Assembly (NCBI GenBank): GCA_051294905.1
Contig: CM119372.1
Location: 14,386,001-14,450,000, forward strand
Source of the DNA: Botryllus schlosseri
Taxonomy: Eukaryota
DNA length: 64,000 nucleotides
Reading direction: 5' to 3'
The notes beneath the pieces were generated by a model. It was not told the origin of the DNA and did no database searches. It saw only the letters and a list, made by a program, of their open reading frames with translations. The translations under genes and the position numbers were made by a program. Below are positions 13,597-47,800 of this stretch, piece after piece. How positions within the stretch are numbered: position 1 is the first letter of the stretch; each line of letters opens with the position of its first letter.

Positions 13597-13902
13597 ATGG
13601 GAGATTTCGATCCGTGTGAGTGTGTGTGCAGTCATCAATGGGCTATGAGACGTCTTCTATCGATTTTGAGGTCATCACAGCAATATTGTACGGACAACGA
13701 ATGCTTTGGGGAGTTACCAGATCCAAATATTACCCCTCCAAACCAGAACTGGAATACGTTCATGCTTTTCATTGGCTGGATGTTCGTAGCACTTCTGTTA
13801 TTCATGGTCAGGCCAGCAAGCTTGCGAAATCAAGGAGATCAAAAACCAAGACCTGGTCACGGCAGAGGTCCGCCTCCACCTGATGTACCACCAATTCAGT
13901 AG
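13597..13902 (+). CDS. SMIM14: Small integral membrane protein 14, 101 aa, single coding exon
   Basis: MGDFDPCECVCSHQWAMRRLLSILRSSQQYCTDNECF, one TM helix (FMLFIGWMFVALLLFMVRPASLR) and a Pro-rich tail. An acceptor at 13556-13557 and a GTAAG donor at 12939 suggest a 5' UTR intron. Confidence 0.93.
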   Translation: MGDFDPCECVCSHQWAMRRLLSILRSSQQYCTDNECFGELPDPNITPPNQNWNTFMLFIGWMFVALLLFMVRPASLRNQGDQKPRPGHGRGPPPPDVPPIQ

Positions 13903-18100: not shown

Positions 18101-21100
18101 GGTGTGCTATATGTCTATCTCAGCTATCTATTGAAGTTCACTCTAGATGGTGATGAATTGATGATATTCGCAACAAACGACACTTTGAGTCAACTAGTTT
18201 AAGTCGAAAAATCGCACAACATCTAATGAAACAAAATAGTCAGATCCATCTACTTTGTGGTTTTGTGGTGCTTTGAAATAATGAAAATATCAATAAACTG
18301 ACACTGATACTGAACCATCACTTACAATAGTGAAACGTTACAGATCGAAAAGAACATGAAATTATGCCCAGCCACTACCGGGATACTGGACAGGTTACAG
18401 AATATCATGAAGGATTGCATATTCGGCAATGCTTGTTTCTCTGTTGTTAATGCAGAGACCCACATAACCGAACATTACGGACCGTGCAATATACGCGTCA
18501 GGTGTCATCTGGGTAAGGAAATATCAGTTTGCTGTTGGTATCGTGATCAGCATCACGTCTCTGAATCGGTTTATGTTGACCATTGTTCCTACTTCCTGTC
18601 GTACACAGAGATGGGTAAATAGATCGTTATGAATCGGCAACAGGCTGATGGATGGCTCTACTCTGGTACAATGTCACAATGTACAGTTGGGCCTATCCAG
18701 TATGGTAGCAGTCGACCCTATAGGCATTAATACGCCATCTCATACCCATACGGCTAGGAAAACTGTAGCGAGTGCCGTAAACTTAGGCCATCAAGTTTGG
18801 AACTGGCACTGTGCTGGGCGTGTCTGACTCCCCGTATCCGTACTTTTGGATATCCTCGAAAAGCAATGTTTAAGCCCTGGCCTGGTCATTACAACGCGCT
18901 GCTCTGTGTCACATGTCAAGTAATGGCCTGTATCACCATCACGTGAAATGACATGCTATTTCACAGAACTATCGATGTCACATAATAGGCCTACTTCATG
19001 ATATTCAAATGGTCTCCACTCTCCGTGGTCAGGCTCATAGTAGTATAGCAAATATCGCAATGGTCGAACGGAGTGCAAGACAAGCTGAGCCGGGGGTGCC
19101 AACATGCGGCATGATTTGTCAACGGAGTGCCACAATACATTTTAATTTCTTTCCAAAATCTGTCGTAAATTTATTGCTATGTTATCGCATTTAGCCTAGC
19201 TCAGGGGTTCTCAAAGGGTGGGCCACAGGAGCATTTGAGGTGGGCCATAAAGCTATTTAAAAATTTTTAGAATTAATGTAAGTTTAGTTATATTTGTTAT
19301 GTTATTCGCTAAAAATATATTCATATTAGGCTACTTAAAGCTTTTCATCCGCAGACTCTGATGACACATATAGTGGAATGTATGGAGTCAGCATGTACAT
19401 TGTACACGTTCCAAACGGCAGGGAGAAACGGTGGCTTTTTCCACTGGCTATGACAACATACGGCTAACAGCAACTAAAGTAATTTCGAGTACATAATAAG
19501 TGAAAGGTAATGCTGAAGTAACCAAGTATTCCGGCGGGGGCTGGGGCATATGTCGTATGCCGTTGAAAGGGGTGTGCAATAAACTCGGAACAAGGTGTAA
19601 TTGATGTATAGATTTACTGTAGGGAGATGTGGTACCGATGGATCAAAAATTGGAAAATGATCGCTGGCCCCAAAATGTTCAGCCGAAAACATCAGATCTT
19701 TTGCTGGCTCTGCACTTTGATACAAGCTCTACCTATCGCGCACAAATACATGAATATCCGTCTTTTCAAAAAATATTTATGGACGTTCAAAATTTGATGC
19801 TCGAACGTATCATCGGTCCCCACCCGGTGGGTCCAATGGCACACGACCCGGGGACCTATAACACATATACCCTAAAAAACTCAAACGTGACAACTTTTCT
19901 TGCTCAGTATTGTATTCTAAGCTACAGCAAGCCAAAGAAGAATGTTTGGTCGCCACCGTCAAAAAATAGAATGAATATTAAGTCAAATGTTGTCATAAAA
20001 TCACGTTTCGATTTAGGCTCGAACTTATAAATTTGAGGGTACATACATATTGCCCGAAAATCGACAGTGTGACTTCCAAATACCTGGTTACAGCGATAAA
20101 ACATCATATGCAATTATTACATAAAGATTTTCTTTACGTAGGCATGTTTCACTTGTTTCATGATTAGTATGCTTGATTATTTTGCTTGACTTGGCTTTTG
20201 TATCATCGGTCCCCACCCTACGAATTTTATACATGAATGGAAAAAATTCCACCCAAGGAAGGCACTGAAAAAAATCATAGGTGCCATTATATAGCCTGAT
20301 ACAAGCCCTACACTTCACAATAAAAATGATTGCTGGTTTGTTCGTGTTGAAGGTTACAAAGAAAAATGTATATGTCGATTTAAATTTAGTTTACACCCCC
20401 AAAAACATCTGTGAGAGACCCCATAACTCGCGCACGTCGAATTTTTTTGTATGTGAGGAAAGATTTTGCCAGCATGCAACTGTAGACAAGTTCACGGTGT
20501 GTAATCATGGAATTATCATAGAGAATTTTTAAAGTATTTTCGGTCCCAGTGATCCATCGGTACCACATCTACCTTACTTAGGGAAATCGTGTTATTGTAA
20601 GATAAAAATAGCCAGAATTGCAAATTATTAGCAACTTCTGGTGGAGGTATACTGCACCACCGCAACGAATCGTAATGGAATGAGGATTTAGCGGAGTGCA
20701 TTAAACTTTGGATTCGGTTTAAAATGTCCGCCCTGATGTCATTGTACATAATGTAAGAGTCACATGAATTGATTGTATCGTTGGATTGAATATTCTGACA
20801 TCGCAGCTTCAGTTGGTTTGGTACAAGATGTGTTGTTATGCATGCATATTATAAAAACCTTTCTCTACTTCTCCGTAGTACCCCATTCACCAATGAATTG
20901 TTTGAATCTGACCCAGAATGATTATATTATTCCTCATAATAGTGGAACTAATAAAATCCCAATCACACAGTGGATGCGTGCATTTGCTCATTGTGTTTTG
21001 CGATGCGAACGGAGCAGCGGACGATCATAATATACACCGGAGTTTCACCCCATGATCTGCCAAAGGCCGTAACTGCTGCACCCAAACCCCCCATTGCGGG

Positions 21101-22794
21101 ACCTTGAAGGGGGCCAAGATTATTTCGTCTGTCGTTTGTTGAAGGGTATTTAATTTATACGACTTGAAAATTTTCGTCGCGCTTCGCGCGGGGTCTGCAT
21201 TTAAGTTTCATCTGTAAATTAAGGGCAAAATGCGCATATTTTAGAGGAATAGGCATATCGGCACCGTCGATTACCACGCATTTAACAGGATTAAGACTCC
21301 ACGATAAGAGGTGGGCCACAATACATTTTCAAACCGGAAAATGGGCCGCAGCAAAGAAAGGGCTGAGAACCCCTGGAGCTAGTATTTTGCCTAAGCTTTC
21401 ATTGTGCTAGCCGCGTTTACCATCGCTCGGCAATTGTAGATTTCAATTACTATGACATTTAAATTGATATCTTTATACTATTGCTTGGTTTCACAAATTA
21501 TAGAACTGATCACAACTGAACAATATTGGGTCGTATGGGCCCATAAGTCGAATCTTATAAATGTGGAGTAAAACCTTTTTTCTGGTGTAAGGTCGGCTTA
21601 CTTTCATCCTTAGACTTTCACCTCGTCAAATATGACTTTCGTGTCTGGACATTGAACACGGCTAGTAGTACGGCGTGTTCCAATTTAGGAATTGGCATGC
21701 TTGGACATTTGAGTTGAAAGCCCCGTGAGACTATAAGTATAGATCTAATCCATTTCTCGAGACTTTAGATCACGAGGTACGACTGGCATTTCTATGTAAG
21801 AGTACGAAGAGCAGGGCTGTAATGACTCGAGTCATGACTCGACTCGGGTCAGACTCGAGTCACGATTTTCTGATGACTCGACTTGACTCGAGTCATTTTC
21901 TCAAAATACAGAAATGACTCGACTCTAGTCACTCTGTGTATTGACTTGACTTGCACTCAAGTAATTGTGCATGAGCATGACGCGAACCAAGTCATATGAC
22001 TCGAGGATCAGACGACAATAGACCGACATTTCATCGTAATTTCGAAGAATAGTGAAGTAACCACACTCATCGGAATTCGTCTATTGGTAGTGGAACTTGA
22101 AAAAGTCACCAGAAATTGCCAAAAGTGAAGAAAATTAGTATATTATAAATGCGAACCAATCGATATCACCCAATAGAGTTATAAAAAGGAGATTTAACAA
22201 GACTTTAACTGGAAACTGAGCAGTCAACACAATGACTTGGACTCGGACTCGACCCTCTGCTCGCTGACTTGGACTCGTACTTGACTGGGTGGTGAATTGA
22301 AAATGACTCGACTTGACTCGAGTCAAAACTATAAAAGTGAAATTGACTTGGGACTTGGTTACAGCCATGTCGAAGGGCTGCGAAACATTTATTATGTGCT
22401 AAGAAGTGTACGAGTAGGCCTATGTAGCAAATGCAGAGTTGACCCGACCTGAATGCTGATATATTGCAACCTGATTTTGAGTCCGAACAAATATTACCAA
22501 TTTTATATCTTTGTTTAGTCGAATGCAGCATTGCCTATTATTTCAATGCTTGCAGGACTTGAAATTCCAAAAGAATGCCATTTATACGTCGATGGGATCA
22601 AATGTTCATGGACACGCGGGAAGTGCACGTTATTTGACGACTCCTACTTGCATTCAGTGACACATGGAGGGTCGATGGAAAATAGTTGTCCCAGATCGAT
22701 CCTTCTAGTTGATTTTTGGAGTCCAGAAATAACAAATTTCGAAATTCCCGCTCTCAGATATTTGCTACGCAGCGATCATCCCTTGACCCATTGA
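15162..22794 (+). CDS. ASPHD2: Aspartate beta-hydroxylase domain-containing protein (ASPHD2-like), 3 exons, about 306 aa
   Basis: Exons 15162-15674, 18344-18512, 22556-22794 (921 nt, in frame). N-terminal TM, [64 protein letters not shown].P, which match the 2OG/Fe dioxygenase ASPH domain. Confidence 0.88.
16110..16682. mobile_element. TAGGGTTACCA/GAGGACA-family MITE fragment interrupted by a SINE
   Basis: Shares TGTCCTC arrays and the terminal TATGGTAACCCTA with 25478-25930 and 40121-40558. The left boundary is approximate. Confidence 0.65.
16218..16464 (-). mobile_element. tRNA-derived SINE
   Basis: On the minus strand: a partial tRNA-like head with a B-box-like GGGATCGATCCCC, a core GGTCATACCAAAGACTCGAAAATTGGTATTCGCAGCTATCCTGCTAGGCGCTCAGCA, and a (TC)n(TA)n tail. 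The MITE sequence resumes on both sides. Confidence 0.72.
17340..17723. mobile_element. MITE with CGAGTA/TACTCG arrays
   Basis: Ends TAGGGCT...AGCCCTA. Related fragments lie at about 4240-4990 and 16700-17155. Confidence 0.6.
19202..21375. mobile_element. hAT (Charlie-like) non-autonomous element in ASPHD2 intron 2
   Basis: TIR CAGGGGTTCTCA...TGAGAACCCCTG. The left ~150 bp recurs at 58112 onward. The TSD is not clean. Confidence 0.7.
19621..20574. mobile_element. Nested TIR element, superfamily not assigned
   Basis: A 25-bp inverted repeat AGG(G/T)AGATGTGGTACCGATGGATCA (24/25 match) at 19621-19645 and 20550-20574. An internal TATCATCGGTCCCCACC is repeated. Confidence 0.65.
21812..22369. mobile_element. 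hAT-type MITE (CAGGGTTGTA family), older copy
   Basis: Colinear with 9086-9626. Degenerate TSD ACGAAGAG/TCGAAGGG. Confidence 0.8.
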
Positions 22795-25930: not shown

Positions 25931-27433
25931 TTGTTAGAGGACCCACGAGATGCTGTTTCGTTTGACATAACCATAATTATATATATCATTGACATAACCA
26001 ACTTGTTGGTAGATTTCTATAATACATAATAGGGGGTCGGTTTTTGACCCACAGGTGCCCTTTAGCATGTCCAAACCATAATTATTCTCAGCTCTAAAAA
26101 CTAACATGATAGACGCACACAAGGAAGCGAATGAAACGGGCCGGAAAAGCTGCAAAGAAAGAATTTACAGCCGAACAATCAAGATCAAACACTCAATGAC
26201 ATGACCTCCTATCCGTTCATTACATCGCACTGTGTCCTGTGTATTGCATTGTACATTGTGGTGTCTGGAGTAGATGTGAATATAAAAGTCTACCAATAAT
26301 ACCAGTGGGATTCAGCTCAGCGGGAACTGCAGACCCTACACAGAGGTGGTCAGTAACGAAGTAATTCTACTTTTCGGAAGTACTCAAGTAGTCTTCCTAT
26401 ACTTCTGGTACTTACTCAAGTAGATCTGATTTTCTCTACTTCTATTTCTACTTGGTAATATTTTGTGATCTACTTTCTTAATTTTTGCTATTTTCAGTTT
26501 GTCAAGTAGAAGTAGTTTAATTACATTACACCTGTTTTAGCAGATCGCCTTTGGAGCTTTATAGACAAAAGATATGAAATATATTTTCCGCTTTTTAGAA
26601 GTAGTATTTGTTTTTTACTTTCAATTCCGAGTATCATACTTTTTGTTCTAATTACTTTCAGTTCTTTTGTTTACAGAACATACACGTGGAAGCATAAAAG
26701 CAAGTATAGTAATGCCTCTATTTTCCGAAAATACAGCTACACTAAACGGCAACTTCCTCCCCTTCAATCTCAACGGCATCTTCCTGCAAACAAAATTTAG
26801 TTAAAATCTGATCGTTCACATCGAATTAATTAGCACTATTCGACTTACCTGGTTGTGAAGATCGACTACCGGTAGCGGCCCCACTTCAATCTCAACGCAT
26901 ATGTCCATGTCCATCGCATATATCAATCATTCTCTCTATCCGTCAATAGCTCAGTGGTCAATACATGTACCGAGTAGACCAACACCGACAGACGGCATTG
27001 CTGCGTCACAATACAAAGTACAAACGCCGATTTCACCAGGTGCCGAGTTAAAGGTGCCGAGTTCACCAAGTGCCGAGTTTACTGGTAACCCTTTGACCAC
27101 CTCTGAACAATCATTTTTTATGTGTTATGCGTACGCAGTACGTGTACCCTAAACTAGTAAAGGGGAGCACTGTCAATACATAGAACCATATGCACAAAAA
27201 TACAGTAAAATAACGATATAATAAAAATATTTTGATAACTACAAAAAATCATGAGAATCATCTGTCAAATTTCACTCCGGATATTGACCAATATTTGGTC
27301 GCCACCGGTAATGAGGTCAGGAGGTTACACTTCTGAAATCCCTGGAAACGAAAGTGGCTTCATAGCAACAACTTAAATCTTGCTTCGTGTGTGGAGATCC
27401 CGGGCCAACGTGGCGCAAAATTCATCTTTTGCT

Positions 27434-30400
27434 ATGGATCCGAGGGCGACGGGGGACATGGAGATAGCCTCAAAACGCGCCAATGAAAAATCTGATCTGC
27501 AAAATCTGAACCATCGGTTCGCTGCATACATCCAGGCCGTTCGGTCAGCGCACGACATCGAAGTAATTGATGATCAGTACCGTAGTATCGGCGGAACAAT
27601 CTCCTTTTGAAATTATATAACATATTTCAGGCACAGAGAAAAGTTTTGCTATCGTCCAGTGAAACCGAGGAACGGTCATTTCAGACTCTGAAATCACAGT
27701 ATGAGCAGCAGATTAGTGAACTACAAGCAAAGATAGATGATATTTCCAGAGAAAAACAAGAGCTCGAACTCAATCGAAGTGCATATGATACCACTCTTTC
27801 GGAATACGAATCTAGGTATGTGAAGATCGTGAATCAATATTGGGTGATCCAGTGTTGCTAGTGCATGAAACGATGAAAGTAGTCATTGATTAATGTTAGT
27901 GTTACAAGCTATACGGTATATAGCCTAGGTACACCTACCATAGTAATTTTACCAGTAGGCTACCAATCAAGTGCCAAGTTTGTCAACACTCCTATGTTAT
28001 GTAGTTGTTGTAGTCTTGCACTTATCCTAATTTGACTGTTAGAAATTTGTTGTTCTGCTCTCACCCTAAGTTGCTATGTCAGTTGATACGATAATATTAT
28101 ATGATTGATTGGTGAATGTGATATTTTCACTATAAATCATATTCAAAATAATTCTTATTGTATCTTATTGCTGGTTGCTAAAGTATGGGATCTGCATCAA
28201 TTTGCAATGTGAACTTGCACATGAGTTGACTCACAATGTATAGGAGATAGCTGTAACATATCTGAAACTTATCAACAATGCAATATTTGATTGATTGGTT
28301 GATTGATTTATTGATTATATCAATCTGATTATACCGAAGCATTTACTTAGCGGTATATTTATATTTCTGCAGAGTCGTGGCGTTAAATCAATGTATATTC
28401 GAGAAGCAAAACGACTTCCAGCGTCTGCACAGCGCCTTGGCAGCGAAAGATGTTGAAATTCAGGAAGCCAAATCGGATGCGATTCAACCTCGTCTCGCTC
28501 TGGACGGAGCAAGAATGGAAATTGAAGACCTTAAAAAGAGACTGCAAGAGTCTGACCGAAGGTATTAGTTTGTTGAAGTATTTTCAAACCCAATTTGCAT
28601 CTTAATGTGGTGTTCTTAGATTGCAACTTGAAATTGCATCGAAGGGAGAGTTGGAACAAATTTTATCTGATCTGCAAGGAAAAATGCAGAGAGAGATTGC
28701 TATTTACCAAGAAGTAGGTTGATTATATCATTTTATGTAATATTGTAACCTTTAATGTTTGATTTCAAACAAGTATATGGCTGTGAAGTATCATTAAAAA
28801 TGATTTGCATTCGGTATACACTTCGATGACTTCGGTTTCATTGTCTTCCTTTATGCAAGATTAGTAACATCATTTTTTAAATAAAGGAACTGACCGGGGT
28901 GCGACATAAATTGGAGAAATCCCACGAGTTGACGTTGCAGCTGGAAGAGAAAGTAAGAAATGCAAATCACAGTGATTCCAGCTTGGTAGAGTTGATGAAG
29001 AAAGTGAGAGAAGCCAGTGAAGCAGAGCTGAGACGCTTTATGGACGAAACTGAAGCGAAGTATAACTTGAATGTGAGTAATAGGTAGCCTATATGTTATA
29101 GGCTGGATAAAATATTCTATTTAGAAATTGGCTCTATTGTACAAATATATGAGAAAATTTTGGAAACTTCCTTTTTGTAATTGATTTCATTCCGTTCCAA
29201 AGTGACATTGTGACAGGATCGCTCCTGTTCGAATGCTTATTACCTTGCTTGTGGTAAAGATTGATTTCATATTTCAATGTTGCTCATTTAACTCTTAAGA
29301 ACATAGTTGAAATTAAGCATAAGTCTCTAATTGACTGGGATATTAAGTTTGCCTCTAAAAACTGCAATCTTCCATATTACTTTCCAAAATTAATTTTTTC
29401 GTGCAAATATAATGTTTGCCATGACATTTTCATTTAGTCCAGAAACTACAGAAATACTAAAGCCTGATATTTTCAATTCACACTCGATTGGTCAGTAATT
29501 TGGTTTGAGCCGCTGTAGGAGTGCCCTATTTCCTTTGGTAAATTCAGCAATCTATATATATATATATGTGAAATACAAGCATTTTTGATTAGATTCAAGA
29601 AGTCAAAATGCGTATGGATGCCGACGTCAAACATCTGACTGCCCTAGCTGAAGAGAATGCTCAACTAAAAAGTCAACTGGACGCACAATTGTCAGACATA
29701 AGATCATATGAATCCAAAGTAAGCTAAATCCTAGTAAACTGCAGAGTTGTCCGTGTCAAACCTTGCCGCGTAACAGTTGGCAATGTTGGAAGAACAAAGG
29801 CAAGCTGCTGAGAAAGCATCGGCAAGTGAAAAGACAATGTGTCAAGCCACTGTGAGGAACCTTGAAGTCAAACTCCAGGTACATGCCTTATTTATATTTT
29901 AAAATAACTTTGTAGTTTGGTAAGAACACGAAACACTTTCTAGAGGTCAAGCATATAATTTGAATGGTAGGCCTATAAATTAATTAATCATATGTTTAGG
30001 TTCCTGTATGGGCATTGAGTGATGCTGGATTTCAAATACACCGTTGGGCGCTGGTAATCCTTGATTCTGAATGAAATCTTGATTTTACTCAGCTCTCCAT
30101 TCTAACAGATGTTATAATAAATTGACATTTCATTAACAAGCCGAGAATCAAGTGGTTGTTATTGGCACTTGCAGGCCCTACTACTCAGCTACTCTGCCAG
30201 ACAACTGTCAATCGATATAAAAATTGAAGCTACCAAAAGGATAACGGGACAAAAGCTCTCTAAACCGTACTGTAGTGTCTGGAGACTATCGATGTATAAA
30301 TTGCCTTTGTCGACTTTGATTTGTTTATATTGACTTCAGGAAACGCAAGACCTACTGCTTGTAAAAATTCAAGAGCTCGGCGCCGCTCAAGAGGCTAACA

Positions 30401-33400
30401 TCCCTCTGCGTGCTGAGATAAATGCTCTGAAAGTTTTAATTGAGGAGGAAGAAAAGAGGTGGGTGCACTTCAAAGTGTTGTGCTTATTAACCCAACTACC
30501 AAAATTCCCATCCTGATTTCGTCGCCGAAAACAGCCATACCATCTATGATGCCATGCCACATGCAGTGAATTGTTTAGCTTATTACATGCATTTTTTTAC
30601 CGCATAACAAATATCCATTGAAATATCTATGTCCAAAAATAGTCAGTGCTGTTCAGTCGGGTGGCATGAAAGTACATTGAGAGATACTTTCTCTTATTTG
30701 CGTGTAAATACACAATAAGAAAATGTTAAGAGCAATAACATAAAAAAACACAGTCGTGTAGTCTTTCGCACAGGATATAGTATGATCAATGCCACCTTTA
30801 AAAGGTCAGTTTGTTTGATCACACTAGCACACATTTCAGGACACTGTATGTGTTTATGAACTGCACCATGATATCAAAGAACAATAATAAAGAAAATATA
30901 TCCATGATAAAAACTAACAAAAGCAGATGAACAGCATGTACAAAGTTACTAACAGATTTCGTAGTTGTCATGATAACAGCATCAGAGAGACAGACAGTGT
31001 ATACAATATATACAATCTTCACTGAAACAGCAACAATTAAGCTTGTGTGTAGATGTTAAAACAGCTGCCTGATTAACTGTCAAAATAACGATACACTATA
31101 AATCTTGAAAATTTTGTGATTGACCAAGATCTCTGCAGACATTGTTATTTCTGTGATCGATAAAAAATTAATAACAAGTGCATGCGTGAGCGTGAGTGTC
31201 TCTACTTAAGATCTTTTGTATTCCGCGCTCAGATTGAATCTTGAAACATTGGCGCCGGGCAGCCCATTCGCTTCCGCGATGGGAAATCGCCAACAGCTCA
31301 CGACTTCAACAGCATTTCTGGAGAGTCTCGGGCTGGACTCACGCAAGCAGGCGGAAAACGCGCGGCTCGGCTTATCGTCAAATTCCAATCAAACTAGCGG
31401 AACGGGCTATAATTACACAGGCTCTTTTCTGCAAGCCGCAGGACATCAGCAAACTCGCCCCGGCTCCGAGCCCAACAAGTCGAGCTCTTTCGACAGGCAC
31501 GGTTACTCAAAGTTCTCCGCTACCAACCTACCATCGAATTATTCAGATGCGGGTGCAGGTTACGATGACCGTAAAGTGAGTTGTATTCTGTATGATAAGT
31601 TATCTGTATTATCACTCTTTTGTTCCTATATTATATATAAGATTTTATTTCTGTTTTCATACAAAACACTCTATGACTGTATGATGTTTGAACTGAACAA
31701 CCACGTATTCTGGTTCTGGTTGAGATGAAGATCGTCATATCTACGGTACCAGTCAAGATGCATATTTGCATTGGTTGAAAACTCTAATCCTGTGCCGCTG
31801 TTTCATAACCTGCTATACTATGAGATGATTTGTTATTTATTGCAGGTGAGAACAGCAGTGCCCACGAACCGGTCCGCCTATAGTCCGAGGTACGATTTTC
31901 AAAATAACCAATCCAGCGGGGAATCGCAGTATCCTGTCGGCATCGACAATGCAGATAAACCGCAATCCGATCAGTGCGGCCCGGAGACAATACCCCGCCG
32001 TCCGCTCAGCGCTGCTAGAACGAGATTTATTCCTCCCTCAGGAAGTGAGTGCAGTTCGTTTCTTTCTTTTAAAACTGCAACGGCGTTATCAACGATTACT
32101 TCTTAAATACGCAATTACAATAACGAGTAGCACTTGGTTATGATTACACGGAAAATTAATCCGAATTACATACAATTGCAATGCTTACTTGATCTTGACC
32201 CTTGAACATATATTCGAAGACTATAATAACAATAGAGATAAGACTGTGTTATGTGGGTACAAATCTTTTGAAAAATGTGACATCATTTGCTTATTACATC
32301 ATACAGGTACAGAACTTTGAAATTGAATAATATATTCATACGGAAATAAACCAAAATATTTCCAGCTGACACTCATCAACCACTTGTCGCCTGAGCCTGA
32401 CGAGTGTCAGCCGAAAATAATCGGGTTTATCTCAATATGAATGTTTTATTCAATTGTCTACTATTCTCAATGCAGAACTTTGATGCCGACGATTTTCAGC
32501 CTCAACTCATTTTTGCTGTAGCTACAACCCATGCTAACATGATATATGCGGCTGATTGAAAGAATTTCCAAATTATGAGTAGGGAATGACGAATTAACAA
32601 TTTGTGCCCACTTCATGTAGGACAGCAGGAGAATAAGACATGAAATTTTCTTAAACAAATGTAAAACTAACAAGTTGGGTACCGTACTCCTTTTACAAAG
32701 CAATCGATTATATGCCAACTTATCGATTACGATGAAAGTGATATTGTATTCGATTATGATTACAAATCACCAGGGTTGTAACCAAGTCACAAGGCTCCGA
32801 GTCACAAGTCAATCTCACTTTTATAGTTTTGACTCGAGTCAAGTCGAGTCATTTCAATTCGCCACCGAGTCAAGTCCGAGTCCAAGTCAGCGAGCAGAGG
32901 GTTGAGTCCGAGTCATGGAATTATGACTCGAGTCCGAGTCCAAGTCATTGTGTAGACTGCTCAGTTTTCAGTTAAAGTCTTGGTAAACCCACTTTTTATA
33001 ACTCTGTTTGATGATATCGAATGTTTCGCATTTATAATGTACAAATTTTCCTCACTTTTAGCAGTTTCTGGTCGCATATTCAAGTACCAGTACCAACAGA
33101 CTAGATCCCAATAGTGTGTGGGCTTCGGAATTACAATGAAATGCCGGTCTTATGGCGGTCTGAGTCTCGAGTCAATGACTTGGTTCGAGTCATGCGCAAT
33201 GACTCGAGTCCAAGTCGAGTCAATACACAGACTGACTCGAGTCGAGTCATTTCCGTATTTTGAAAAAGTGACTCGAGTCATCACAAAATCGTGACTCGAG
33301 TCGGACTCGAGTCGAGTCATGACTCGAGTCATTACAACCCTGCAAATCACGGATTGCCCCATTTCTGTTTATGTTGCAGGTCAAGGCAAGGATTACTTTA

Positions 33401-36400
33401 ATGTGATGTTCAACGACCTGCGCAAGGATACCTTATATTCTAAAGTTACGGAAGATGGTGCCGGTCACGCGACTGCACAAGTATCGTCGTCGGTTGACCA
33501 GGATTACATCAATTCGACGTCAAGGTGAATTGCTATTTTCATGCTTTGAAACGTTTAAAAATAGTGATGCTTCGTCTCTTCATCACTGCATATCAGGATT
33601 CGATTATTTCACTGTCACTGTCATTATGATTGATTTTCGTGATGATTTCTTCATTCTGTCACAGTCAATCAATTTGAAATAGCAAAATATTCAATTTCGA
33701 TCACATCAAAAAGTAATTGGTAATATACCTAGTCCACTTACAAAGCCGAGATATAGAACAATGTTGAACTTTACCATAAATTGGTAGTACTGGAGTAATT
33801 TAATCGGTTTTTGGGCTTGGTGTAAAACGTCATGGTAACAACATCCTTCAGTAATGGTCAATAGCCACTTTGTAACCGTTGACTATTTGTACGAAGCCTT
33901 CGTAAATGGGCATTGACTTGATATGAAATGACTAGGAATCTTGCTTTTGAATGAAACTTCATTCAGTAACAGCAATTTGGAGTCACTGTAATAACATAAA
34001 TATTATAATAAACAATTATTAATACTTCAAGCGATAATCCGTGAACCCGTTGTACTAGTGTTTTCATATGTTCAAGATAAACAATGAACAATGTGATACA
34101 ATGATCAGATAGGAAGCTATCCAGATTGTTAGCCATGCCATGAAGATTATCTTCAGCGCTGTTATTTTGCAGTCTTCTCTCCAGTGCATATGTGCCGTGC
34201 CTGTCACTTTTTCCAAAGCAAGTAATAAATAGTCCCATTCCGTGTTGCAGTCAAATATGGCTATCTGTTAGTTGATATTAAGTTATCAAGTAATTTTTAA
34301 ACATGAGTGGAATTATACCTTTATAATATGATTGAAATCAGTTTTCAGTTCTGGGATCTTGATTTTTTATTCGTGGCAGCTCTGTTTCATCAGAGCTGTT
34401 GACCATGGAATCGGGTTATTGAAGTATTGACACATCCTTTTTGTACAGCAGCATGGCGAGTAAATCTGGAGATCATGTTAGAGCTTGGTATACCGGAACA
34501 TCAACCAGGTTATTTTCATGATACGGCTAAACTGGCGGTGTGTTTATGTGAAGCCCGGGAATTAAAACATTTCCATTAATTCCTTTTTTGATTCAAACTA
34601 ATTCTATCCTTTCTATGTCTTGCTTTAGGCAACTTTTTGATTTTGTCTATGATAATTTTGCCCCATCTGTTCCTTCACAGATCATTTCTCTTATATCCTT
34701 GGTTTGATTTGCATGACTTGGCTTGTTCTTAATTAAGGTAGTCTCTCCTATAATCTCCACTCTATTCTTTTGTTGATAGTAAAGTCTTTGTGTATCCAGC
34801 AACCAGAATTGGGCATCCGGCGTGATTATATTAATATTATTAAATGCATTTATTATAACGTTACAATAAATGTTTTGCGTAATCAGCATTATTTATTATG
34901 ATATTAACAGTGACTATTGCACTTGTGGTATAATCCTATAACAGCAATTAGATAGATGTTAAATCTCAGTATCTCAATTATGATTGATATTAATCGGTAC
35001 AGTGTTGCAGTTTATTGCTATATAGATATTAATTCAAATGTGTAGAGGTGCAGTGTGACCAATAGACATTCAAAGGAAAAATTATTTTTCATCCAACTGT
35101 TTTTGGAACCATTCCAGTAAGATTAATTGTATCTTTGTTATGTTAAAATTCAAGCCACTATTGTCTGGTTTTCATTGCTACGTAGGCCTATAGCCTATGC
35201 TTATGAAATAAAATAACTACATGTTCCTCAAGTACCGCAATCTTTGTGTAGTGTTGTCTCAATAGTAAGTCCTTACTAAACTTTCCAAGTACCGAAGCAA
35301 GTCAATTTTTATTAACATTTTCAATATACTCGGCGATTGGAGATGTTGATATTGTTAATGACAAGTACTGATAATGTACCAACAACGGGCCGTCTTAATT
35401 TTAGTGCTACCGGAAACTTGAAAGTTCTCCAGATAGCAGATGATGGCTCATCTGTCACCATCACCAATTCTTCATCGACCCAGGAGGAAAACCTCGGAGG
35501 CTTCATGTTGCAGCAAAACGTCGGTGGTCACGTTGTCGCTGTCTTCAGATTCCCTCCGAGAGCGTCGCTACGGGCAGCCTCGTCGACAACCGTAAGCTCG
35601 CTGTTAGCATGGGGCAAAATTTACTGCTCTTTTGTCATCCTTGATTGTTCTACAATCTGTACGGCAGTTTGGGTAGTTTTGTCCTAAACAGTTTACAAAG
35701 CAGTTATTAAGTCGAAATTTCATAGCCTTTGATACTTTCTTAATAATGAAGGGCAAATTTACTAAAAAGATAATATGTATTATTTTCAGAGGTGGTTAGT
35801 AACGAAGTGGTGCACTCAAGTAGGTTTCGAATATTTGCACTACTTACTCCAGTGGTTATGTTTTTAGACTACTTTCAATTCTAATTTAATTCGAATTACA
35901 ACCTTTTTTGGGCAAAAGTACTTACTTTTACACTTTTTATCTAGAAAAGTACAAAGTACTTCTGTTTTGAGTGTCCATCGGTTTGATGAGTGAGATTGGC
36001 TTAAGAACACCATGAAATAGCCTTTGTTATATGGTAACTGAATATATCTGTGAAGGTGGTACCTATTTATAGTATCATTGGTGATTTTTGACCAATCACG
36101 AAGATACATTTTGCAATTTTGAAAGTAGCCTCCTCCAATTAACTGCTAAAGGTATACGAACTTCGAGTATGCTTCATACATTTCATTTTCTCATTCCACT
36201 TGCAGTAGTTTTGATATGTCCTGGGAATTGCTAGTTGCATTTGTATTTGGGTAGAAATTTACGGTGACTCTTTTGCTGTAGTAGCAATGATGGCTACTGT
36301 GATAAACTCTGGTTATATTGAGTAATGCTTGAAAAATACTATGCCATAATTGTGTCCGTATCTTTTCTCTTGTACATGTTTAAGAGTTTAATTCACTAAT

Positions 36401-38234
36401 GTGTTCCTTAATTCTCTTGGATAACCTTGAAGCAGAAATGTTCATTGCAACCAAAGATTGAGCCTTCATCTCGTAGTTCAGCATCAGATTGTGTATCTAC
36501 CAGGATATTGTGCTTGTCATTCTGAGATTATTGTCAAACTATAGTGATAATGGCTCACCGACATGTTCTGCTTCTCAGTAAACAGGAACTTAATTACGAT
36601 CTCTCATCGGCAGGTGTGGAGCGCAAAAGCTGTAAATGGAGTGCACAACCCGCCTTATCATTACATATGGTCGAAATTAGATAAGTGGGGCACCGGACCA
36701 GAATGTACCACAATATTATGTCAAGCGAATGGCCAGGCGGTGGCTTGGATGACATCTGCACCGGTATGTTTTGTTTGTTACAAATTTGCCCCGAGGTTGA
36801 TCAATTTTCGTTTCAGAGGGTTGTGAAGAAATCAAAAATGAAATATGCGCCTAATGTGAAGCAACAAACCGAGGAAACCAGGAAGTTGTTGGAAGACCTT
36901 CGAGTCAAGGTATTGCACTTTGATGTGCGACTTGTGACCCTATTTATAAAAGGTCTAGTTTTATTCACAAGCGTAGAAGCCCGTTTGCCAAGTTGCTTCA
37001 TAAATGTAATTCAACTGTTGCAAAGCTTGATTTTCACCATGTTCGGTAGAATCAAATGAACGATGACGACTCTATCGTGGAAGATGACGTCTCGGAGAAT
37101 AGCTGGAAACCAGACGCTGTGGTACTTCCAGATTCGTATACTAAGAAACCAGTGCTATATTCTAACGACGGCAACAGCCCGAATACCCTGCCAAGTATTA
37201 ACAAGTGAGTGAATTACTTTTCTGGGAATCGCATTTACATATCACACAGAAACCTGAAAGTTCTTTTGAACAGCCGGTCATTCAAATGCGCTTGACACTA
37301 AGTGCAACTGTGAATATGTTGTTCAGGATTGGCATTTCAGCAAGACAACAACTATGAAATCGCATCATAACCAGAGGTGGTCAAAGTATTCATCATTGAT
37401 ACTCAAATAGAAGTAGCAGTAGAAATTTCCAATTAAGTAACAAATTAACTATTTTCTGCCTAGTTTTGTCTAAAAAACTGGAAACTGTTAAGTAGAAGTG
37501 GCAGTATTGTAAAATCATAACCACTTGAGTAAGTAGTGCAAGTAGACAAAACCTAATTGAGTAGGCCTACTCTGAAAAAGTAAAAGTATTTTGTTACAGA
37601 CCTCCTCTGAATAACCGATTTGAATTTTGCAAGCATCAAGTGTCACAAATGTCACTTATCTCTTTCACATTCTATGGCCAGCTCTGCACCATTTGTGATA
37701 ATGTCATTTTTCACCGCCTTTTCCAAGCGTTTGACAGGCTGGATTTCGTCGGATAACTGCAAATATCTGACTTCAATTCACAGGTCAAAACACATGAAGA
37801 CCTCCGTCACTTCGGGACTTCTCCCATCGCGAACGGGAGCGTCTCCTTTACACCTCCACCAATCGAGAACCACGGCCACCCATCAAGTGAGTGAAAATGG
37901 TGAAACAGAACATCCCTACTCCCCGCCATACGCCCCACAGCACGAAGACAACGGTAGAGTCGAACTGTCCGCCGATAGGCCGGTAGCTCGTGTAAATGGC
38001 CGCAGAATCGTGAAGTCAGCTCCGGAAAAATATGGAATTGACAATGAACGTAAAGTCACGCCTGGGCAGAGTGTGCGCATGCACCTTCCCGGGACCTTCT
38101 GGTCACCGGGCGAGCAGCACGCGAAGGGCATGCAGTGGATAAACGCCCAGCACAATGCCAACTTCATACCTCCCATGCCCAAAGCGTTTCCGTGTGTGAA
38201 ACCGATATATCGCAATGGCTCCCATACACGATAA
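27434..38234 (+). CDS. LMNTD1: Intermediate-filament protein with a lamin-type rod and an LMNTD1/IFLTD1-type lamin-tail domain, no CaaX; 16 exons, about 950 aa
   Basis: Exons 27434-27562, 27631-27815, 28373-28561, 28620-28713, 28887-29072, 29593-29718, 29777-29878, 30340-30458, 31233-31575, 31846-32044, 33380-33524, 35405-35591, 36614-36763, 36817-36909, 37050-37204, 37784-38234 (2853 nt, in frame). Coil 1A: EKSDLQNLNHRFAAYIQAVRS. Rod end: LRAEINALKVLIEEEEKRL. LTD: ATGNLKV...LQQNVGG...FRFPP...TTVWSA...HNPP...CTTILCQANGQAVAW, which from memory resembles vertebrate LMNTD1. The symbol rests on the LTD only. Confidence 0.82.
32771..33342. mobile_element. hAT-type MITE (CAGGGTTGTA family), opposite orientation
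   Basis: TIR CAGGGTTGTAA...TTACAACCCTG. Exact TSD CAAATCAC. Confidence 0.88.
34449..34508 (+). other. Candidate alternative 60-nt exon of the LMNTD1-like gene, containing an in-frame ATG
   Basis: tacAG|c agc ATG GCG AGT AAA ... TCA ACC AG|GTtatt encodes SMASKSGDHVRAWYTGTST. It is phase 2 at both ends, matching the phase-2 intron 33525-35404. Confidence 0.45.
37372..37609. mobile_element. MITE of the CAGAGGTGGTCA/AGTAGAAGTA family
   Basis: Ends CAGAGGTGGTC...GACCTCCTCTG. Degenerate relatives lie near 5636-6130, 26341, 35788, 41124-41386, 44790-45070, 51070-51600 and 53620-53710. Confidence 0.6.
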
Positions 38235-40120
38235 ATCACTTAGGGCCGGTTCACTCGCGTCACATCCAACGACGTAACTCTGCCTAACGTCTTATTTTAT
38301 AATTCCTTGCTTTTGCTAGCAACTGCTGAGTCAACTGTACAGTCTGAATTTTTGAGAAAGGCCGGAACGATAGCGTCGGTATGAATGCAACAAGTGCATG
38401 TTATGTTCTGCTCAAAAATTTTGCTACCCATGTTAATTTATACATTTAATTGCCGGACGATATTGTAGATCGGCATGGAATCATCTCAATCAATTTAGAT
38501 TCTTCAATGTAGATCGAAATCTGCCTGCTCTGTAATACTGATCATGAAAGTTCTACCTACTAACTGATGTTTGCTATCATTGCTGATTCCGATACAAACA
38601 TTTTCTTCTGCTCTTCTCATCTCAATCTACTTAACCGTAGTTGATAATGACATCTGTAGCGTGATATATTAATCTCCATTCAAGCTAAATTCTTCACATA
38701 TATATCTCGAATATGATCTTCATCTCTGATTTCCAGTAGCATGTGATTGACATTTAGCATTATTCATTTATGCCCATATTCCAGACTAGTGGCAGATTTA
38801 CCCATATATATATATATATATGTATATCTTGCAAATCTAATCTCTCATCAGACACAAGTGCCCAACTGCCCATAGACACAATAGCTTGAGATTGAACTGT
38901 GGAATAGTCTGATATCTGGAGACGGAATCATTTTTGAACCGACAGAGTTACCTGGAAAATTAATCCATTTTATGTTGTTCTCATTTTTCTCAATGTTGTG
39001 TCATTAAAAAATTCCTGCCACAAGATTCTGTAGATAAGCATCCAACAATTTTTGGGCAATTAGGCATTCATTTTCGGAAACTCCTGCGCATCTCTTTGAT
39101 TATTATCCCAATGCTGATATCTTCATATCATGTTAGGATTTGCGACCAATTGTGATGAGAAACAGAGACCTTGTCAAGCTCACCACACAGAAGACTGCCA
39201 GATCAAAGTACGGTTTTGACTACATGGCGTATCCTCCGAAAGTAACTAATTATGATGGCACAGTCCGATAAATTTTGGAAGGTTTCATATTATTTCAAGT
39301 ACTCGTTTGGAAGGCTTTCTCTTTAGCTTTCTCAACTGAAGCATGCAAATATTTTACTTCAATTTTAGTGACAGATTGCCTGTAATTTTTTACCATATGA
39401 AATCGAGCACTTCAGAGGTAAATTTAGTATTATCTATCACATGAAAACCTGTTTATCCTAGTTATTCACTATTTACATATACATTTCTGCTTATGTTGTG
39501 CCATGACACTGCACGTTCTAGAATTATTCTGTACTAGAAACAGTTCTTTATCATCCCGTAGAGCATAATATTTCTACTCATCAGTATTAAGGATGCTCAA
39601 ACAATGTTTGTGCTCCTCAAGTAGTTGACAATAATCTTGTAGTGGAATAACCCAATTTTGTGATTGTTCCTTCTTGTGTTTATTATGATCATGCGATATT
39701 TGAATCAATAAAGTGTGACCATATATTGAATTATGTTCCAATTGTAGCTCAATCCATTTTCGTATGTATGCTTTATGAATATTGAAGTTATTTCTGCAAC
39801 ATGAAATTACTGTGATGGCGTCGTGCACTAAATGTTTAATAAATTACTGGACCTTTTCCAGTTGCACTACTGTAGGGTATATATTTATGGTTATCACTTT
39901 GAATTGATCTTGTATATATATTTCTAATAAATGATGATGAAATTCTGTCCCTTCGAAGTCATGGACCGAGCTGAATTGTCGCAATATTTACCCAGGGACA
40001 GAAAAATACATCTATACAGCTTGTCCTAATTTAGGACCCCATATAATGGTTGGGATACTTGCCACGAGAGTACAGAGAACAGATCGTCCAATTGAGAGGA
40101 AGATGTTTAAAGCAGTAATG

Positions 40121-41830: not shown

Positions 41831-44800
41831 ATGGATGTATCGGAGGAAGCCGAGGCATACGAGTCTTCTGATGACAGCAGCAACGATGCGGAAATGGATG
41901 ATTCATCCGTGGAAATAAGCAGTCTTGAAAAAAAGGTGCCGAAGTTTGCTATCTTACCATCGACTCCTATTATATAGCTACGCTGCAGTTCATTATCTTA
42001 TTTATTCTCGTTGTTATTTTTTGTTTCCCACTTTACTATTATTTTTCGGTAATAATTACAGTTTACAGTGATTTTTTACCTAAAAACTGAAGATTTTGAC
42101 CAAAAAAAAATCAAAATTTCGACATTTTTTTACCTTAGGAAACTCAATTTTGACCAAATTTTAACCTAACATATGGAAATTAGGCTCCCACTCCCACATA
42201 ATGTTGAAATTGCACTATACTTATCTTCATTTTTGGTTGGAACTCTTAGAACTGTCTGTCCTTACGAAGTAGTTCGGCCTGTAAAAACATTTTGACTCGA
42301 AAACTGATAGATTTTTTACATGAATTGATATATTTCATGTTTTTGCTGTCATGTAATTTGTATTTGACAGTTGACAAATAATAAATTCACTCTATGAATC
42401 TTTTTATGCAATCATGATTAACTACGGTACCATTTTCTTTTGCTCAGTCTATATATATATAATTATATTTATGAACAATTTTTCACTATGCTTCACGTGG
42501 TACCATGTTGCCGTTTTTCATTTGTGTAAATTACAACTTCTAAACTACTCTTGTGGCACTGGCACTAAGACAATGTTTACTAAATCCCTCAGTCATACCT
42601 GTTAGACAAATTATTTTCCATTTTGTGTCAATTTATTATTATTTGCACCTGCATTAGAAATGACAGTTGACGAAATAAATTCTCAAAAGCATTAGTGTTA
42701 GAATTATCCAGTGAGAAGTTGGTCCCGTTTAGTGGAAAATCGTGTATTCAAAACAAATTTATTGCGGAGTACGTAACAAGATTCCAGCGTGATGCATGTT
42801 GCAACTCAAGCCAATCTGATAACTACCCTGGTGATTTAAGCATTTGCTCTTAGCCTCTTACAGCTGAATATTTGGTCTCACTTCCCGATCAGGTCAGACT
42901 AGGTAGTGGTTCTCAAACGTTTTTGACTCATCATCACATATCTTTGTCGCCCCCTAACAACTAGAGATCAATATCGTTATTCATCTACTTTTCCGTAGTG
43001 TTCAAGTATGTGGTATAGACTTACTAAAGCAGTTTTTCTTGTATACTATTTATACTTTACCACTTTTTCATCCCCATCTCTCAAAATGGGTATTGCCCAG
43101 TTTGGGTACCACTGGACTAGAGACTTTCGATTTGGTGTCTGGAAATTTCATCGTAGCATACCGTGACTGAATTGCCGATGAGGCCAGACACGTTCAGCAA
43201 GCCTTTGCCACATTTTCTCAAGACACGTGTAAAGCAAAGTCTTTTATTGACCATGTTTAATTTCCTAGTTATCTGAAAACCCCTATCACTACCAATCACA
43301 CGTCGATCTCATCGGATTATTGAGAAACGCGGGAGAGTTGAACAAGCTGCGACATGCCCGAAAGAATATGGCGAGATTATTCCCTCTTACACAGGTATAT
43401 AGCGAAATTCTACTTCGCTCAGCACCGCATTTGAGTTATTGTTTGTGTGCATATCTCAGACTCTTTGGATGGAGTGGATTGAGGATGAGAAGAAATTTGC
43501 AGAATCGGAAAAAGAACATGAGCACATCGTTGAATTATTCGAACTCGCGGTGAAAGATTACATGTGTGAGTAGCGAGCATATCGTCCAATTACATATATA
43601 ATATTTTGTTACAGTCTTTAGTATGGTATGTTGACAGTGGATTGGTGGTAACTGGTTATCCATTTACTGGCAATCACACCCTTACTGTGATGAAGTCTGT
43701 TATAGGGTGGTCTTCATTGTTGCTTCTTTATTATTTAAGGATCTGTTTTATCATACATTAATTCATACTATTTTAAAAATCGCAAGATTAGCCTGGAAAG
43801 ATATCAATCTCAATGAAAATTAGTCCTATTAGCCCCGTCGCGTCACATTATCGCAGAATTCAGCATCGTCGCCGAATGATTTTCTGGCCATTGACTTGCT
43901 TATTCTAGGTTCATGTATGAGTGTAACATTAGCCTGGTAGCTTTGCATTTTTATCTAATTCATGGTATCTGAATTAATTATGCTTATCCCAAGGGTCACC
44001 ATATTTTGTTCCAGATTCCTGATGAGTTGAATTGCTTCAATGCCAGTCACACATCTGGGAATAATTCCAAAGTCATCTTTGTTTGGGTTACATGACATCT
44101 TTCAACCGATATATTCAGTACAATATTCTCCAAATTTTCGAGTTGATAATAGGAGGACAAAGCCAGTTCAATTATATATCTGTTGCCGGTTTTATATTCC
44201 TAGAAATTTCAAAAATGAAAATTATAATACCGGCACAGATGATTTATTTCAGAATATATAGTAGGTTTCCAATAACCGACATAACCACTGACATGTCTAC
44301 TCATTTCTCTATTTCACCATAGGTCCAGAAGTGTGGCTTGAATATTCACAGTATGCCACCAGGTGGATGAATCTGCCGGACGGCCTGAAAAAGATACGCG
44401 ACGTCTTGGAACGTGCTGTGGCAGCAGTTGGCCATCATGTCACGGAAGGAGCGTGTGTTTGGGACATGTACAGAGAATTTGAAAACATAATATTTCAGAG
44501 TTTGCAGGTGAGACTAATAACACAGGTTTTAATAGTACCAGTATTGCGTCAACTTGGTTTTGTGGCAGCAATTATTTTATCGGCTGCTACAAGGAATTTA
44601 GTCAGAGATGTTGTCGTTTTTGTGTATTAGGATATTTTGATGACAATGCCATTCTCACAGCCCGCACCAGGCAGCGTGATTACTCCAGAACAGCAAGACA
44701 AATTGAAGAAGCAAAAAGAAAAAATGCTGGGGCTATTCCGAGGGCAATTGGGTGTTCCTTTGATGGGTGAGTGTAGCTATGTTTTGGAAGAGATGATCAG

Positions 44801-47800
44801 TATGATGTACTTGTACTTTTTACGAGTACTCGAGTAGATTTTGCCTAGTTTGCACTACACGGTCATGATTTTAGAGTAATTCTACTTCTACTTACCGTAA
44901 CAGTTTCAGTGTTTTGGCAAAACTAGGCGTAGAGCATTTACTTTTTACTTGCTTCGAAATGTCTACTTTCACTTGCTTTGAAATGTAGACTTTTACTTGC
45001 GTAGAAATTTGCGATGTTACTTGTACTTCAACTTGAGTACCACCAATGACTACGTTATGACAACCTCTGTGTATTGTTGGAAGGGTATCTTTGAAATCTG
45101 TCCGTAGGTGTCCGAATTTGAATTCAGTGCCTATCTCCATTTTCGATTAATTGCCCAAGGGAGCAAAATTGAAGTCTTGCAGATTATTGCTATCAGCAAC
45201 TTCATCATCAAATCCACAAATGGCCTCTTTTCGTTTATCTAAATTTTTAATTATAAGTTTGTTGACAGTATCTAAATTCTGTGCTTACAACTGCTGCATT
45301 ATTATTTTCCTGTTGAACGGCTTCTTTCAGGAATGGAGAAAACATATCAGGAATATTTGGCATGGTGCGAGGAAGATGTAGACTCGAATATCAAGCACTG
45401 CTACAAGCAAGCTTCGTCGAAATTAAAAGAGATCATGCCGCACGAAGATGCATTGGTACGTCGTCAAGCTCGTGTAGTCCCGGTTGCTTGTTATTTCTGC
45501 GAGAAATTTCGGAGGACTTTTCAATATCAGGTCCAAGTATCACGACCTTATCACAGCCTTGAAATAGAAGTTGTACACTGGGTATTCTGAAATTTTTGGT
45601 CTCTAATAGCTTGGATCTTCTTTAACACACCTTTCTACTCCCAGTTCTCGAGTGATCGCTTCAGTTGAAATGCGTGGTGTGGACCAATTTGTTCAGCCAA
45701 GCGCAGTTATTAGCTATCGTACGATCATATTGATGTTAGTGCGTGACTTATATTGCTATTCCTGTCGAATTCGCAATACACTGATGCCTATGGACTAAAA
45801 AAGTTCCTGAACTCTACTATGTTACTTACTTTTCGTTGGTTATCGCGCGAACTGCAAACCGCAAAATAGACGTTGGTCACATTTTAGACCTTCCAACAGA
45901 CGTTTTGATCACAAGTTATCCTACTGACAGCTAGCTGCCGAAACACCTCGATTACAAGAATACCTGAACTACATTGATCACCTCACCAAGTCTGGAACAT
46001 CATCACACGCCCTGCGCTGTGCGGTGTACGAACGCGCTCTGGTAGACAACTGCCTTGATTCGGCACTTTGGCAACAGTATTTGACCTACATGGTAAATGA
46101 CGTTGCGACTTTCACTCGCATGGTATCAAGACGTTTCTCATTTTTGTCAACAGAGCCAGCAATCGACTCCGATCGGGGTAATGGTCGAGATAAATTTGAG
46201 GTCTGTGAGGAATTGTCCGTGGATCGGTCAACTGTGGATCCAATACCTGGAAGCGTTGGAGAGAAGTAGCGTGCCGAAAGAAAAGGTATTTGCTCTTTGT
46301 GGCATTTAAAAATGTATTGCAACCTTACAGAGACCGTGACAATTGATGTGTTCTTGCAGCTGGACGAGGCTTTCGATGAAGCGCTGAAGGCTGGTTTCTC
46401 CACTGCTTACGAATATTCACAGCTGTGGCTGGCGAGGTGCGCGCAAATAAGAAGGCTCCTTGCGTCCGGTATGTTGTGCGTGATCGGAGGGCTGTGTTGC
46501 TTATTGAGAGTCGACTGCTTGTGGGAAGCAGAAAATGTCCTCGAGAATTAGTAAATAGTTCGAAACCGTCGAATTTTGTATCATTTTATGAGTAGACAGG
46601 AGTTGACTCAATTGCCTGTTTTGAAATAGACCTTATTATACTAGCAAATATGGATAAAATTATATTATCAAACACCTTGTAGCTAATACTGCCAAGTCAT
46701 ACTATGCTCCTAAGAGGAGGTATCACAATGTTCCTCTTGATTTTGTGTTGCGGTAAGCGTATTGTAGATGATTTCTCTGATTGAAATAGGATTTAACCAT
46801 GACGAGGTCGATTTATCAAATTATTTTGATAGCAACATGAGTTTTAGATAGTCACAGTAATTGATGAAATGGACTGACATCGCTTCGTCGATACCCGGCA
46901 TGAATTCGAATCTTTAAACATCACTGCCCATCCCGAATTATAACATCTTGCTTTCGAATATCATAATCTGATGTATCGAACAGGGGTCTACAGGAAAGAT
47001 GATTTGACGGAGTCTTTCGAAGCCGCCACAAAATGTCTTACAGAAAAAATAGTTCCGTGTAAGTGTGGCGTAGCATGTGTGGTGAGAAGTTGTTGTAACG
47101 AAATTTTGTAGCATTCAAGCAATCCGGCGACCCCGAATATTCTTTGTGGACGTTTTGGAGTCATTGCGAAGCAAGTATATCGGCCAATCTGAAACTTGCG
47201 GAAAGTATACTGAAAAATCTCACGCAGAGCAATCCCGAAGCTAGACGAAAATTGAGCGTGTGGAAAGAGTATTACGATATCATGTGGTGAGTATCATAGA
47301 ATTGCATCGTTTTAGCATTTGGAATGACATATTTTCGCAATGTCTATCACACAGACACAGTAAGCAATCAGCCGATCAAAAGCAATGCGATATTTAGCTG
47401 TGTGGCCTGTGGGGAATGCTAATATGCTAGAGAATGTTTATGACCCCTAAAATAGACGCTCTAGCAACAATATTTCTATGCTTCCTCTGTTTTAGACGTA
47501 ATCTGCCGTTAGTCCTGATAATGCCTTGTGAGGAATACAAGAGATTCAACTGTAAACCTGGACGTTGGAATTTGCTTAATCATAGTTAAATCGCTGTTCG
47601 GATTTCTGCGAGGGACCTGGGACCTTTAGAGCCAAAATGGATGTAGCAGATGTGACATCAAATATTTGAATCATAGTTTGTGACTATCTTATTCTCCATG
47701 TAACCTGCTTATAACGGTTTCGAATTGGTGTTTTCGCTTCTGTGAAAAATATCATTTTACTTTTCCATTTTATCCCCAACCTTTGACCTCAGTGTGCACA

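Follow-up and report, generated by a model that had tools for sequence, protein, structure and literature searches.

The stretch of Botryllus schlosseri DNA analysed here (the 'window': 64,000 nucleotides, positions 14386001-14450000 of contig CM119372.1, handled as G000:C2:14386001-14450000, in a genome of 495.5 Mb) contains, on its forward strand at window positions 27434-38234, a gene that is very probably the single ascidian ortholog of nematocilin (also termed 'cilin'; LMNTD1 in vertebrates). The product is a lamin-derived intermediate filament (IF) protein that combines a lamin-length rod with an LTD, lacks a CaaX terminus, and likely forms filaments in the cytoplasm, as a brace for cilia, ciliary bases and the flagella of sperm. 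Membership in the nematocilin/cilin family, taken by itself, is close to certain; the ciliary filament role, which draws on analogy with orthologs, is probable. The gene is real and intact, and its kind is not new, as the family, its ascidian members and the link to LMNTD1 are already in print. An initial annotation, made from the letters alone, had presented it as a possibly unrecognised filament protein, and that claim of novelty fails because rod-bearing LMNTD1 orthologs have been described before (Kollmar 2015, PMC4448529; Kremnyov et al. 2025, bioRxiv 10.1101/2025.08.21.671432; both are cited here and below for parts of their content). The value as a discovery is therefore small. What is gained is a clean model, with RNA support, of a gene that has been little studied and that appears in databases as 'uncharacterized' or 'lamin-B2-like'.

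The exon chain and its protein

The coding chain consists of 16 constant exons, from the ATG at 27434 to the stop at 38234, and one cassette exon. Each of its introns has GT-AG borders and the reading frame has no interruption, yielding a protein of 950 residues without the cassette and of 969 or 970 with it, with the C-terminus NGSHTR ('end A'). These properties, together with the joints seen in spliced contigs of four runs (X1, X2, X6 and X10, whose RNA nature is a guess and whose contigs are not single molecules), confirm the spliced frame of about 950 residues that had been drawn earlier; its constant exons stand, and what it missed were the cassette exon, a minor intron (37887-38319) and an alternative last exon (39137-39271). 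The features are as follows.

27434..27562, +, exon 1: ATG, short head and start of coil 1A (Pfam Filament positions 1-22, E-value 6.9e-5; X2 record 7 covers 27362-27562; in-frame stop upstream)
27631..27815, +, exon 2: rod, followed by a phase-2 intron common to the animal's own lamin (length fits contig coordinates)
28373..28561, +, exon 3: coil 1B, long lamin-type part (contigs, translation, rod alignment)
28620..28713, +, exon 4: rod (length fits contig coordinates)
28887..29072, +, exon 5: rod (contigs, translation, genome search with the Ciona protein P0004)
29593..29718, +, exon 6: rod; its 126 nt equal those of the own lamin's exon (joint 29718>29777)
29777..29878, +, exon 7: rod (contigs, translation)
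30340..30458, +, exon 8: rod end of cilin type, without the canonical YRKLLEGEE (translation, P0004 genome search, motif counts)
31233..31575, +, exon 9: low-complexity linker (joint 31577>31848)
31846..32044, +, exon 10: linker (joint 32044>33380, in contigs and two raw reads)
33380..33524, +, exon 11: carries QGxDYF, a motif conserved ahead of the LTD (71 of 103 relatives have it; contig joints)
34449..34508, +, exon 12: cassette of 20 residues, or 19 from a further acceptor at 34452 (X2 and X6 each show it both retained and skipped)
35405..35591, +, exon 13: first half of the LTD (Pfam LTD, E-value 1.2e-5 for the exon alone; contig joints)
36614..36763, +, exon 14: rest of the LTD, including the family motif WGTGPECTTILC (contig joints, motif counts, P0004 genome search)
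36817..36909, +, exon 15: tail (contig joints)
37050..37204, +, exon 16: tail (contig joints)
37784..38234, +, last exon A: tail with conserved PPMP module (48 of 103 relatives have it), ending NGSHTR before the stop and thus without a CaaX, internal donor after 37886 (contigs, translation)
38320..38355 (end coordinate approximate), +, minor end B, after intron 37887-38319 (joint 37886>38320 in X1 and X6, low depth)
39137..39271, +, alternative last exon C: DYMxYPP module, no CaaX (matches an X2 loose end at 37887; contigs of X1 and X6 start at 39136/39137)

The joints listed directly in contigs of the four runs are 29718>29777, 31577>31848 and 32044>33380 in the rod and linker; 33522>35403, 33522>34447/34450, 34506>35403 and 35591>36614 in the LTD part; and 36762>36816, 36907>37048 and 37204>37784 in the tail. 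The remaining joints among exons 1-9 are deduced from agreement between contig coordinates and exon lengths (X2 record 7, X6 record 11), and the raw RNA run X23 contributes two of the joints at two reads each, being too thin for most of them. Exon 11 is joined to the LTD exon in contigs of X2, X6 and X10, which with the joints before it speaks against separate transcripts for rod and LTD, a weakness that the initial annotation had foreseen for its own reading. An X6 contig of 1839 letters contains pieces from exon 3 through exon 11, and an X10 contig of 1954 letters, with its end in the LTD exon, has 1674 letters before exon 11 against an upstream coding length of 1672, so that it probably covers the rod as well as the LTD (its 5' part is placed by length only). 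Other donors for the first intron (27577, 27582 and 27585) and an LTD acceptor at 35365 were dropped, the RNA-supported sites being preferred.

That a single protein contains a full IF rod and, behind it, an Ig-like LTD is shown by these joints and by Pfam matches to the exons and to the closest protein found, Styela clava LOC120343340 (53% identity over 986 columns). Exons 1-2 match Filament and exon 13 matches LTD, both below cut-off as single exons; in the Styela clava ortholog both domains score above it (59.9 and 44.1 bits, respectively). From LNxR to EExRL the rod measures 354 residues, where the own lamin has 350 and one of the animal's own cytoplasmic IFs has 301, and coil 1B is accordingly of the long lamin type, as had been proposed from exon blocks of 189+94, 126 and 102+119 nt that were found as claimed. 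The head (about 16 residues) has no S/T-P site, the first of which occurs at residue 387; the linker (227 or 247 residues) has no basic cluster in a pattern search, which is not a predictor of nuclear localization signals (NLSs); and the tail comprises 232 residues, all in keeping with the earlier description of a short head without an SP site and of a linker and tail of about 230 residues each. No CaaX was found in the translations of ends A, B and C, the latter two being additional to the end on which its absence had first been noted. The linker is divergent (a BLAST match in 1 of 104 proteins); residues 906-970, the conserved C-terminal region and roughly Kollmar's nematocilin-tail domain, match 52 of the 104 and, by eye, also the ends of LacNem_A, StpNem and CagNem.

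Relations to cilins, LMNTD1 and lamins

A search for relatives with the LTD region of the Styela clava protein returned 103 proteins of 530-1689 residues among 1063 candidates, a length range that excluded rodless forms below 530 residues and hence human LMNTD1. Filament and LTD are both present in 93 of them, and they span corals, molluscs, annelids, echinoderms, hemichordates, amphioxus, ascidians, sharks and lungfish, with several of the vertebrate members named LMNTD1. The family motifs occur in the set with differing frequency (QQNVxG in 99, GTGxEC in 89, QGxDYF in 71, PPMP in 48 and DFMxxPP in 5), rod length is 342-359 residues in the 55 relatives where it was measurable, none ends in a CaaX motif, and a canonical rod end occurs in one. 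Public databases obscure the family by labelling many cilins 'lamin-B2-like', 'prelamin-A/C-like' or 'centrobin'.

Within the genome, all five matches of Ciona P0004 fall inside the gene, and P0004 is itself near-identical, by eye, to the CiNem sequence of Kollmar's Dataset S1 (CisNem also matches it). Rod identity amounts to 39% with CiNem, 27% with a sea anemone sequence, 23-24% with tunicate lamins and 18.5% with the own cytoplasmic IF. A rod tree, an analysis that the initial annotation had suggested, comprises 35 rows: the gene, the own lamin and 33 proteins picked by taxon from a set of 104. In it the gene is sister to Styela clava (100/97) inside a six-row ascidian-type clade with Ciona (100/100), and the two lamins occupy a long separate branch. 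Constraining the gene to group with the lamins costs 22.8 log units and is rejected (approximately unbiased test, p-AU 0.0003). The LTD is 50-56% identical to those of vertebrate LMNTD1-type proteins, and phmmer scores of P0001 reach 138-158 bits for turtle and lungfish LMNTD1-type proteins (over a region that includes the pre-LTD motif) versus 47-55 bits for solved lamin LTDs; by these scores and identities the domain is nearer to LMNTD1 than to the LTD of lamins.

The gene does not stand in for the animal's lamin. A separate CaaX lamin, to which a Pfam Filament search led and whose existence had been named as a check, is present at G000:C2:18723965-18733683 (18.724-18.734 Mb). As read here (464 residues, modelled on the lamin P0104, without its first exon or an RNA check), it has a head SP site, a canonical rod end, an RRKRK NLS and the end CSIM, with no LTD between NLS and end. 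No Pfam LTD is found in P0104 either. The loss of the LTD in ascidian lamins was stated by Kollmar 2015 (PMC4448529), with which the own lamin agrees. Five of the eight rod introns of the cilin gene share both alignment column and phase with those of the own lamin, and a sixth lies one codon off. This backs the lamin-type intron argument of the initial annotation, which had relied on the intron positions that it gave for human LMNA. The Filament search of the genome gave 23 matches in eight other places and missed the cilin gene itself, so that counts of IF genes are lower bounds; the corresponding LTD search gave no candidates, missing even the cilin gene, and is uninformative on other LTDs. 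A protein search from an own-lamin exon returned one protein. The own cytoplasmic IF at G000:C2:7.32 Mb has 24+18=42 residues fewer in coil 1B and the canonical YRKLLEGEE end.

Compared with known systems, the gene agrees most fully with nematocilin/cytovec/Cilin (CiNem, CisNem, Styela clava LOC120343340) in its rod, Ig-like LTD and conserved C-terminal region, in the same pre-LTD, LTD and C-terminal motifs, and in having neither a linker NLS nor a CaaX, and departs from it only at species level, through the divergent linker and the minor third end B. With vertebrate LMNTD1 (IFLTD1) it shares the LTD and, in lungfish, a Pfam-positive full rod, whereas the mammal and bird proteins have reportedly lost the rod. 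It resembles nuclear lamins in coil 1B and intron positions, but unlike the own lamin it has no head SP site, NLS or CaaX and does have an LTD, and the two rods are 23% identical. Like chordate cytoplasmic IFs it has an IF rod and no CaaX; unlike them it retains the 42 residues of coil 1B and carries the LTD.

Kollmar 2015 (PMC4448529) defined nematocilin as a rod, an IG domain and a conserved tail, present in eumetazoans except Ecdysozoa and flatworms and with the rod lost in fish and mammals, and listed CiNem, CisNem and BfNem in Dataset S1. Kremnyov et al. 2025 (bioRxiv 10.1101/2025.08.21.671432) named the family Cilin, equated human 'nematocilin' with LMNTD1, placed Ciona nematocilin as sister to LMNTD proteins (bootstrap 96), and reported that LMNTD1 keeps the full IF architecture in turtle and frog and has lost the rod in mammals and birds. 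The initial assertion that vertebrate LMNTD1 has no full rod was thus overstated, since turtle, frog and lungfish keep it. A rod-bearing, non-prenylated LMNTD1 ortholog of lamin origin is what the evidence supports; the duplication from a lamin, however, is on sequence comparisons ancient and common to cnidarians, not a tunicate or chordate event.

Proposed role and competing explanations

From general IF biology, the 354-residue rod would form coiled-coil dimers that stack into filaments, and a protein with neither a linker NLS nor prenylation would stay out of the nuclear envelope, in the cytoplasm. The LTD and its conserved flanking motifs may serve as docking sites, and the filaments, if the protein behaves as its orthologs do, would brace ciliary bases, rootlets and sperm flagella. 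Kremnyov et al. 2025 cite a study on Hydra, Hwang 2008. In ascidians, the function of full-length cilin at cilia and the reason for the loss of the rod in mammals could be put to the test.

The ciliary or sperm association guessed at the outset agrees with data on orthologs, from which the role is assigned here by analogy. Ctenophore Cilin forms short cytoplasmic filaments in zebrafish cells, is reported to be exclusively cytoplasmic, and is located in cilia, rootlet bundles and spermatid flagella; in oyster and sea urchin, ciliated cells show enrichment of the ortholog; and a ciliary association is reported for Hydra, ctenophore, oyster, sea urchin and human (bioRxiv 10.1101/2025.08.21.671432). 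Several points weigh on the other side. The main functional source is a preprint, the main text of which mentions neither in vitro assembly nor knockdown and which places ctenophore Cilin also in non-ciliated cells (muscle, gut and pharynx). None of the papers listed in literature searches gave data on localisation, cell type or assembly for an ascidian ortholog, and a search with gene identifiers brought up the preprint as the sole relevant one among 20 listed of 66. A rod end that lacks the canonical Y[RK]xLL[ED]xEE (as it does in 102 of 103 relatives), a short head and a modest Filament score make assembly into ordinary filaments uncertain; and a weak basic patch, KKSK, lies at residue 742, directly after the LTD. 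The outgroup of the rod tree is thin (two lamins, both tunicate, and no cytoplasmic IFs), and its deep forks among cilins stay open, so that it does not recover the sister relation to vertebrate LMNTD reported in print.

Some of these points feed a different view, in which the protein is a cilin by descent that works as a general cytoplasmic filament, or as a soluble coiled-coil scaffold, and in this animal is not particularly tied to cilia. The rod end, the short head, the ctenophore protein in muscle, gut and pharynx cells and the missing assembly and knockdown work in the preprint's main text are all compatible with it, but the ciliary association reported for five kinds of animals and the conserved rod length argue the other way, and we regard it as unlikely without dismissing it. 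Far less credible is a second nuclear lamin, A-type-like and without a CaaX, that supplies the LTD lost from the tunicate CaaX lamin. Lamin-length rod, lamin intron positions and LTD, the 'lamin-B2-like' names of several relatives and the absence of an LTD from the own lamin would suit such a protein; the absence of a linker NLS and a head SP site, the rejected grouping with lamins and the exclusively cytoplasmic ctenophore ortholog speak against it. A tunicate-specific, unrecognised lamin duplicate, or an artefact fusing a rod gene with an LTD gene, deserves almost no credence: long repeat-bearing introns do separate rod and LTD and the contigs are not single molecules, but the chain of joints from rod to LTD is unbroken, both domains stand in one protein in 93 of 103 relatives from cnidarians to vertebrates, and the rod tree and topology test add to the refutation. 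The nematocilin/cilin reading is therefore retained.

Splice variants and surroundings of the gene

The cassette (57 or 60 nt) lies just before the LTD, and the three ends yield, besides the proteins given above, products of 846 or 866 residues (end B) and 879 or 899 residues (end C). A segment matching the cassette is likewise optional in isoforms of Styela clava, Ciona and Clavelina. The end of Styela clava isoform X3 shares 71% identity with end C (E-value 1e-17), which has further counterparts in Ciona X3, Clavelina X5 and Phallusia; ends of the DYM/DFMxxPP type, to which it belongs, resemble that of amphioxus. For end B, no counterpart occurs among the 19 ascidian records inspected. The variants of ascidian cilins are already present in RefSeq models, and the Ciona rows of the Kollmar 2015 alignment (PMC4448529) include the cassette segment and a second C-terminal end; no paper on them was among those listed in literature searches, and the main text of Kremnyov et al. 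2025 treats splicing only generally. What novelty remains is small, and lies in splice variants common to ascidian orders.

That conservation across orders suggests, from sequence comparison, that the variants have a function. It is conceivable, as a tentative guess, that the conserved set (the pre-LTD cassette and the mutually exclusive PPMP and DYM/DFMxxPP ends, across Styela, Ciona and Clavelina) switches the partners or places of the filament, for example between somatic cilia and sperm flagella. If so, the ascidian gene would be a tractable full-length model, nearest to the vertebrates, for the role of rod-bearing LMNTD1.

Other genes in the window include, at 6638-12202 on the reverse strand, one whose exons match Pfam UVB_sens_prot and UVB_sens_C, presumably of RUS1/RUSF1 type; at 13552-13899 (+), an open reading frame matching DUF2615 (E-value 8e-35), which we take to be of SMIM14 type; upstream of the cilin gene at 18314-22791 (+), two exons that match Asp/Asn beta-hydroxylase and likely belong to an ASPHD-type gene; and at about 44292-57462 (+), HAT repeats, an RRM and LSM_int_assoc, a layout that we assume to be that of SART3/Prp24. 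Two dispersed repeats occupy 26600-26950, just upstream of the cilin gene (71 matches, some tandem, from 40 scored of 2153 candidates), and account for the high contig depth there. Within intron 10, at 32770-33342, a high-copy repeat in which TCGAGTC units abound shows loose contig ends at either border and a very high contig depth; it is possibly a miniature inverted-repeat transposable element (MITE).

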